Assembly (NCBI GenBank): GCA_944390835.1
Contig: CALXQT010000024.1
Coordinates: forward strand, 3,037 to 67,036
From: an uncultured Alphaproteobacteria bacterium
GTDB taxonomy: Bacteria > Pseudomonadota > Alphaproteobacteria > Rs-D84
Direction: 5' to 3'
DNA: 64,000 bases
In this document: piece after piece, positions 40,041-40,811 of the stretch
Layout: every line of letters begins with the position of its first letter
How positions within the stretch are numbered: position 1 is the stretch's first letter
Program-made: the position numbers and the translations under genes
The notes under the pieces: model-generated
Database searches by the model: none
What the model was told of the DNA's origin: nothing
The model's input: the letters and a program-made list of their open reading frames with translations, nothing else

Positions 40041-40811
<771 letters not shown>

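Follow-up and report, generated by a model that had tools for sequence, protein, structure and literature searches.

Does the in-frame TGA within parA of this uncultured alphaproteobacterium reflect a true nonsense allele, a stop codon that is read as sense, or an error in the assembled consensus? The window, by which we mean the whole 64,000-nt stretch that was analyzed, carries this TGA at 40431-40433 in the local reading ...GAT TGT CCG CCA GCG ATG TGA TTT TTG ACT TTA AAC..., and the ParA residues around it are LLDCPPAM-X-FLTLNALTTANNVIIPLQ, with X standing for codon 131. Downstream of the TGA, 125 in-frame codons run up to the TAA at 40809-40811. When the stop was replaced by X or G, the product comprised 256 residues and matched ParA/Soj structures straight across the stop: residues 4-253 of 8RAY_B aligned with residues 3-252 of the query (E=1e-78), Thermus Soj (1WCV/2BEK) matched with E about 1e-64 (1WCV, E=1e-64), and 6IUB was a further match. 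Because these matches extend from end to end across the stop, the two open reading frames belong together as the two halves of a single gene and are not chance neighbors. The deviant Walker A motif KGGVGKTT occupies residues 11-18 of the translation and is invariant in a 23-sequence alignment. The frame for the whole ATPase fold is cut by the TGA at codon 131; parA is thus a disrupted member of the family, at least as assembled. The earlier note on this DNA, made from the letters alone, had described an in-frame TGA that cuts parA into two same-frame ORFs with the downstream part intact and no frameshift, and the ORFs, the structure matches, and the run of codons to the TAA bear out each of these points. 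The features of the locus are collected in Table 1.

Table 1 Features of the parAB locus and its surroundings, with positions in the window.
Feature	Position	Strand	Evidence
rsmG (gidB), usual upstream neighbor of chromosomal parAB	38343..38900	+	TIGR00138, E=6e-34, above curated cut-off
parS-like palindrome GTTTCATATGAAAC, copy 1	38900..38913	.	
parS-like palindrome GTTTCATATGAAAC, copy 2, 133 bp upstream of parA start	39895..39908	.	
parA/soj, chromosomal, 256 codons, broken at codon 131	40041..40811	+	ParA/Soj structure matches; orthologs 94% identical
N-terminal fragment ORF, 130 aa, with Walker A, A' and B, ending ...LLDCPPAM	40041..40433	+	
Premature TGA (codon 131)	40431..40433	+	T at 40431 derived; same-species contigs have GGA (Gly131)
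C-terminal fragment ORF, 124 aa, TTG start two codons past the stop, no Shine-Dalgarno	40437..40811	+	
parB, intact, directly after the parA TAA	40812..41687	+	TIGR00180 parB_part, E=1e-51

The surroundings of parA are those of a chromosomal partitioning locus, with parB adjoining, rsmG upstream, and two parS-like palindromes. The parB product aligned with its ortholog from the syntenic relative L001 over all 291 residues without a stop, and this alignment, together with the TIGR00180 match, agrees with the earlier statement that parB is intact. Its Shine-Dalgarno sequence, GGGGGA, lies 6 nt before the ATG and inside the 3' end of parA. The parS-like sites that had also been mentioned are present as two exact copies of GTTTCATATGAAAC in the window, for which 0 copies were expected (100 shuffles); with their flanks, the two copies have 16 nt in common, TAGTTTCATATGAAAC. 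GTTTCATATGAAAC is a putative variant of parS in which AT replaces the central CG. The same core was found upstream of parA in many more distant alphaproteobacterial loci; among the closest other species (L001-L006, L010-L025) no exact copy turned up. The locus resembles that of the chromosomal ParA/Soj of ParABS systems (8RAY; Thermus thermophilus Soj, 1WCV/2BEK) in its end-to-end match, the KGGVGKTT motif, the order rsmG ... parA-parB, and the parS-like sites. It differs in that the frame is broken at codon 131 in the window, whereas parA is uninterrupted in 80 representative genomes and 22 close orthologs.

Between rsmG and parA, and bracketed by the two palindromes, is a hypothetical gene of 304 aa on the minus strand (38933-39847) that falls outside any Pfam family. 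The gene is evolving much faster than those around it, with 56% amino acid identity to the L001 ortholog compared with 75-97% for the flanking genes, and no gene was called at this position in L006.

The residue expected at the stop was read from two sets of relatives. In an alignment of the 22 close orthologs (77-94% identical), all of which have an uninterrupted parA, the position is Gly in 21 and Glu in one. The survey of species-representative genomes, in which the best match had 86% amino acid identity and which served for lineage naming, intactness, and residue counts, gave G in 51 of 80 genomes, followed by N (17), S (7), T (3), Q (1), and D (1), with an internal stop in none of the 80. 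Thermus Soj has Ser at the aligned position. In the closest other species, L001-L006 (about 80% nucleotide identity), the codon is GGT, GGC, or GGG. On these alignments Gly131 is a frequent residue and not an invariant one, and the spectrum of residues looks like that of a helix N-cap position. The TGA had been said to sit exactly at a conserved glycine; glycine is indeed the usual residue, and "conserved" overstates it given the N, S, T, Q, D, and E found in homologs and the Ser of Thermus.

The most direct evidence on the origin of the stop comes from two contigs of the same species, L008 and L090, which come from independent assemblies, have 99.8-99.9% DNA identity to the window, and were recovered by exact look-up of neighboring proteins. 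L008 (ENA ERZ24773545, BRZ_SF NODE_13865) matches window positions 34343-40883 with 99.92% identity (5 mismatches in 6,541 nt); at 40431 it has G, which gives the codon GGA and an intact 256-aa ParA. L090 (ENA ERZ24773524, BRZ_RF NODE_131161) spans 39281-41194; of the 771 nt of its parA, all but the base at 40431 agree with the window, and there it again has G and encodes an intact ParA. Both contigs have low coverage as given in their names, 2.2x and 2.95x, the latter being L008. The base is G in L008, L090, and L001-L006 and T in the window only; since G is found in every outgroup, T is the derived state. The single GGA-to-TGA substitution that had been deduced from the window by itself is thus seen directly in conspecific DNA, and the comparison of parA among relatives that had been proposed as a check is provided by these contigs and by the uninterrupted genes of the 22 orthologs and 80 representatives. 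Both intact alleles, the Gly version of the window's haplotype (P0123) and that of L008 (P0121), have records elsewhere. In a collection of 15 billion proteins, exact look-up found the 130-aa and 124-aa products together on one public contig only (NCBI, 69,573 nt), which is presumably the window's own source MAG. Two scans of JGI metagenomes with patterns that span the site and leave the variable base free gave 0 matches; the window's species is absent from the JGI collection scanned.

The other differences between the window and L008 in parA are two synonymous changes, at 40526 and 40592, and Thr253Ile, at 40798; all three are private to L008, with L090 identical to the window. Three of the four L008-private differences fall within 272 nt of the 3' half of parA, and one, a Ser/Arg difference at 36560 in a gpsA-like gene, falls in the remaining 5.7 kb. 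This clustering could reflect a small recombination tract or errors at low coverage (2.95x). Across the 1.6 kb shared by both conspecific contigs, the window has no private difference other than the T. Two further contigs, L009 and L092, are 100% identical to the window; L092 ends at 39910, short of parA.

Substitutions relative to L001 were counted separately on the two sides of the stop, with synonymous:nonsynonymous differences of 66:9 and 58:7. This equally conservative split on both sides indicates that parA was under constraint until very recently; it is unable to date the lesion itself, given that other species are ~20% diverged at the nearest and that L090, from the same species, has no further differences.

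A further hint comes from L007 (ENA ERZ28613547 scaffold_230191, sample ONAT22-1_SAMEA6814514), a contig of 1,294 nt that is 100% identical to window positions 40432-41725 and whose first base is one past the variable site. In de Bruijn-graph assembly, a contig shared downstream of a site with two alleles begins at the base after the SNP, and a contig that ended by accident on exactly this base would be expected roughly one time in a thousand. The start of L007 at SNP+1 thus suggests that both alleles at 40431 occur in the reads of one data set or more. Such a break could also come from a recurrent sequence-specific miscall, and the boundary by itself is no proof of a biological T.

Taken with the intact GGA allele in conspecifics and the derived state of the T, these observations lead us to favor, on balance and with some reserve, a very recent and probably segregating nonsense allele of parA. 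A single G-to-T transversion at 40431 would have turned Gly131 from GGA to TGA in one strain or subpopulation. With the standard code, translation of ParA would end after the Walker B motif (ILLDCPP), and the 130-aa fragment, deprived of about half of the ATPase fold, would leave ParA effectively knocked out. The ribosome-binding site of parB and the parS-like sites would remain, and ParB-parS functions could continue. The allele would be too young to have gathered further lesions and is probably found alongside the intact GGA allele in the same population. The locus has the marks of a nonsense polymorphism, namely a disabling lesion set against intact conspecific and orthologous alleles and polarized by outgroups. 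In this it is like young pseudogenes and segregating nonsense polymorphisms, which likewise show a single derived nonsense change in an otherwise perfectly conserved gene with an intact conspecific allele; it is unlike them in that parA is a housekeeping gene of the core set and its streamlined lineage is reported to be free of pseudogene accumulation, and in that the lesion is known from assembly alone. The consensus on which the nonsense allele rests is an assembled one, and the GGA contigs, low as their coverage is, agree with all outgroups. Many bacteria survive deletion of parA, though with segregation defects, and Mycobacterium and Corynebacterium do so with anucleate cells and slower growth, whereas parAB is essential in Caulobacter, itself an alphaproteobacterium (PMC9298525); a true null might therefore be inviable here.

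That the true codon is GGA, with the T miscalled or a wrong path taken by the assembler and parA intact, is a substantial possibility that falls short of being probable. The T is known from one assembly only, and every other observation gives G or an intact gene, including the two conspecific contigs, the six close species, the 80 representatives, and the 22 orthologs. G-to-T changes are a common type of artifact in short-read data and through oxidative damage. The lone T also has no second private difference beside it in the 1.6 kb covered by both conspecifics, the gene that it breaks is a core gene, and the 19 neighboring genes are intact in a lineage described as lacking pseudogene accumulation (PMC12306168). 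In such a lineage an isolated broken core gene is atypical, which modestly favors a deleterious allele of short duration or else an error. Against an error, a source contig of 69.6 kb usually implies a reasonable coverage at which random errors are outvoted; the break of the independent contig L007 one base past the site is one that a random error in a single read would not produce; and the complete identity of the window to the independent contigs L007, L009, and L092 elsewhere suggests that the assembly is not generally error-prone.

We regard as improbable an allele that is real and still yields ParA, either as a full-length protein through UGA readthrough by near-cognate tRNA-Trp or as two pieces through termination and reinitiation at TTG. 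A TTG start is found 4 nt past the stop with the downstream frame intact, and homologs carry G, N, S, T, D, Q, or E at position 131, which is thus a tolerant one. Of the bacterial stops, UGA is the most prone to leak, at natural rates of about 1e-3 to 1e-2 (PMC4989110), and readthrough at such rates would supply at most traces of full-length ParA with Trp at this position. No Shine-Dalgarno sequence precedes the TTG, and the C-terminal piece would thus be made by termination-reinitiation only. The stop is followed by U, which in E. coli makes for strong termination. A single-domain P-loop ATPase cut after Walker B is unlikely to be active, and the GGA of the conspecifics argues that the locus is not adapted to recoding.

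The RNA-level searches point the same way. Scans for tRNAs in the window found no suppressor, the tRNAs present being Thr(cgt), Val(gac), Cys(gca), and Val(tac). Rfam searches of the window at gathering and E-value thresholds found no SECIS or other recoding element, with only a chance sRNA match at E<=1. The fold of the 121-nt RNA around the stop was unremarkable (z=-2.05, with 10 of 200 shuffles as stable). Neither TGA nor Cys was ever found at codon 131 in relatives, which have GGN codons for Gly. Selenocysteine-type or programmed recoding was rejected on the ordinary fold, the GGN codons of relatives, and the lack of an Rfam element. Among the four explanations that the earlier note had weighed, a recent nonsense allele and an assembly or base-call error thus remain, and readthrough or locus-specific recoding finds no support in the tRNA scans, the Rfam searches, or the RNA fold.

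The use of TGA elsewhere in the window was surveyed in 56 non-overlapping ORFs, chosen greedily and each at least 100 aa long, which comprise 19,407 codons and 91% of the window. These ORFs end in TAA (44), TAG (5), or TGA (7, with the parA stop counted), and the base after the TGA stops is A in four of the seven. TGA terminates six other real genes; the two that were compared with orthologs both stop at the ortholog's end, a MutS-like gene with TGA where the relative L001 has TAG and a TPR gene with TGA in both. In frame, TGA occurs once in the 19,407 codons, in parA, against 254 GGA and 200 TGG codons. Apart from ParA, 19 gene products of L001 align end to end with the window without a stop.

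Genome-wide reassignment of TGA to Gly (code 25) or Trp (code 4) can, on the evidence of the window, in practice be dismissed, even with a stop at a usual Gly position, a lineage of small, AT-rich genomes, and the earlier evolution of UGA reassignment in reduced genomes (PMC2704378), since TGA is a real terminator at the ends of orthologous genes and is otherwise absent in frame, and since conspecifics have GGA at codon 131. The earlier rejection of a reassigned code is upheld on the same grounds, and of the many other in-frame TGA codons that had been named as the sign favoring a sense reading, none occurs in the 19,407 codons surveyed. The likeness to code 25 (UGA=Gly, Gracilibacteria/Absconditabacteria) and code 4 (UGA=Trp, Mycoplasma, Hodgkinia, and others), which consists of a TGA at a usual Gly position in a small, AT-rich genome, is coincidental, and on the aligned codons the match of TGA to Gly is best read as the coincidence of a one-base change from GGA.

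The host is an uncultured gut alphaproteobacterium of an Rs-D84 / Ca. Enterousia-like lineage. Its closest named relatives are MAGs from animal guts that are labeled Candidatus Enterousia, 'Rickettsiales bacterium', or 'Alphaproteobacteria bacterium', and a 2025 paper placed Ca. Enterousia in the uncultured order Rs-D84 (PMC12306168). The same paper describes Ca. Enterousia genomes as mostly <1 Mbp, with normal coding density and an 'absence of pseudogene accumulation', a description that fits the 91% coding density and intact neighboring genes of the window. A GC content of 37.6%, this coding density, and a bias toward TAA (44 of 56 stops) are likewise consistent with a streamlined genome.

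Whether the T is a nonsense SNP private to one assembly or a wrong base, the case is an ordinary one in a well-known gene. The present analysis adds that GGA is shown directly in conspecifics, that recoding is excluded, and that a contig boundary hints at a polymorphism. Annotators should mark the locus as parA with an internal stop and GGA in conspecifics, and neither as two genes nor as a case of recoding; more generally, when a stop falls where Gly is usual in a small, AT-rich genome, code 25 need not be the cause. If the allele were real and common, it would point to a ParA that Rs-D84 / Enterousia-like gut bacteria can do without, a modest point on genome streamlining. The stronger version, in which the allele is real and maintained in a genome-reduced gut symbiont, with ParA dispensable as an early step toward the loss of active partitioning, or with readthrough or TTG reinitiation sufficing, seems to us very unlikely. 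Beyond annotation the finding carries little weight.

Two other features of the window were observed in passing. L001 carries an extra gene of 325 aa without a Pfam match (4844-5821 of L001) between a MacB-like ABC transporter permease gene and gpsA, and the window has no counterpart of it at ~35812-35837. Elsewhere in the window, three ORFs of about 250-270 aa, all on the minus strand and without a Pfam family (51038-51784, 52606-53418, and 53370-54128), have similar ends by eye, with N-termini of the form M.LRYITCS.P... and C-termini of the form ..YIT.aL.W....K. Judged in this way, they appear to be a cluster of paralogs, which lies just downstream of an RlmN-like radical-SAM gene (54110-55216).
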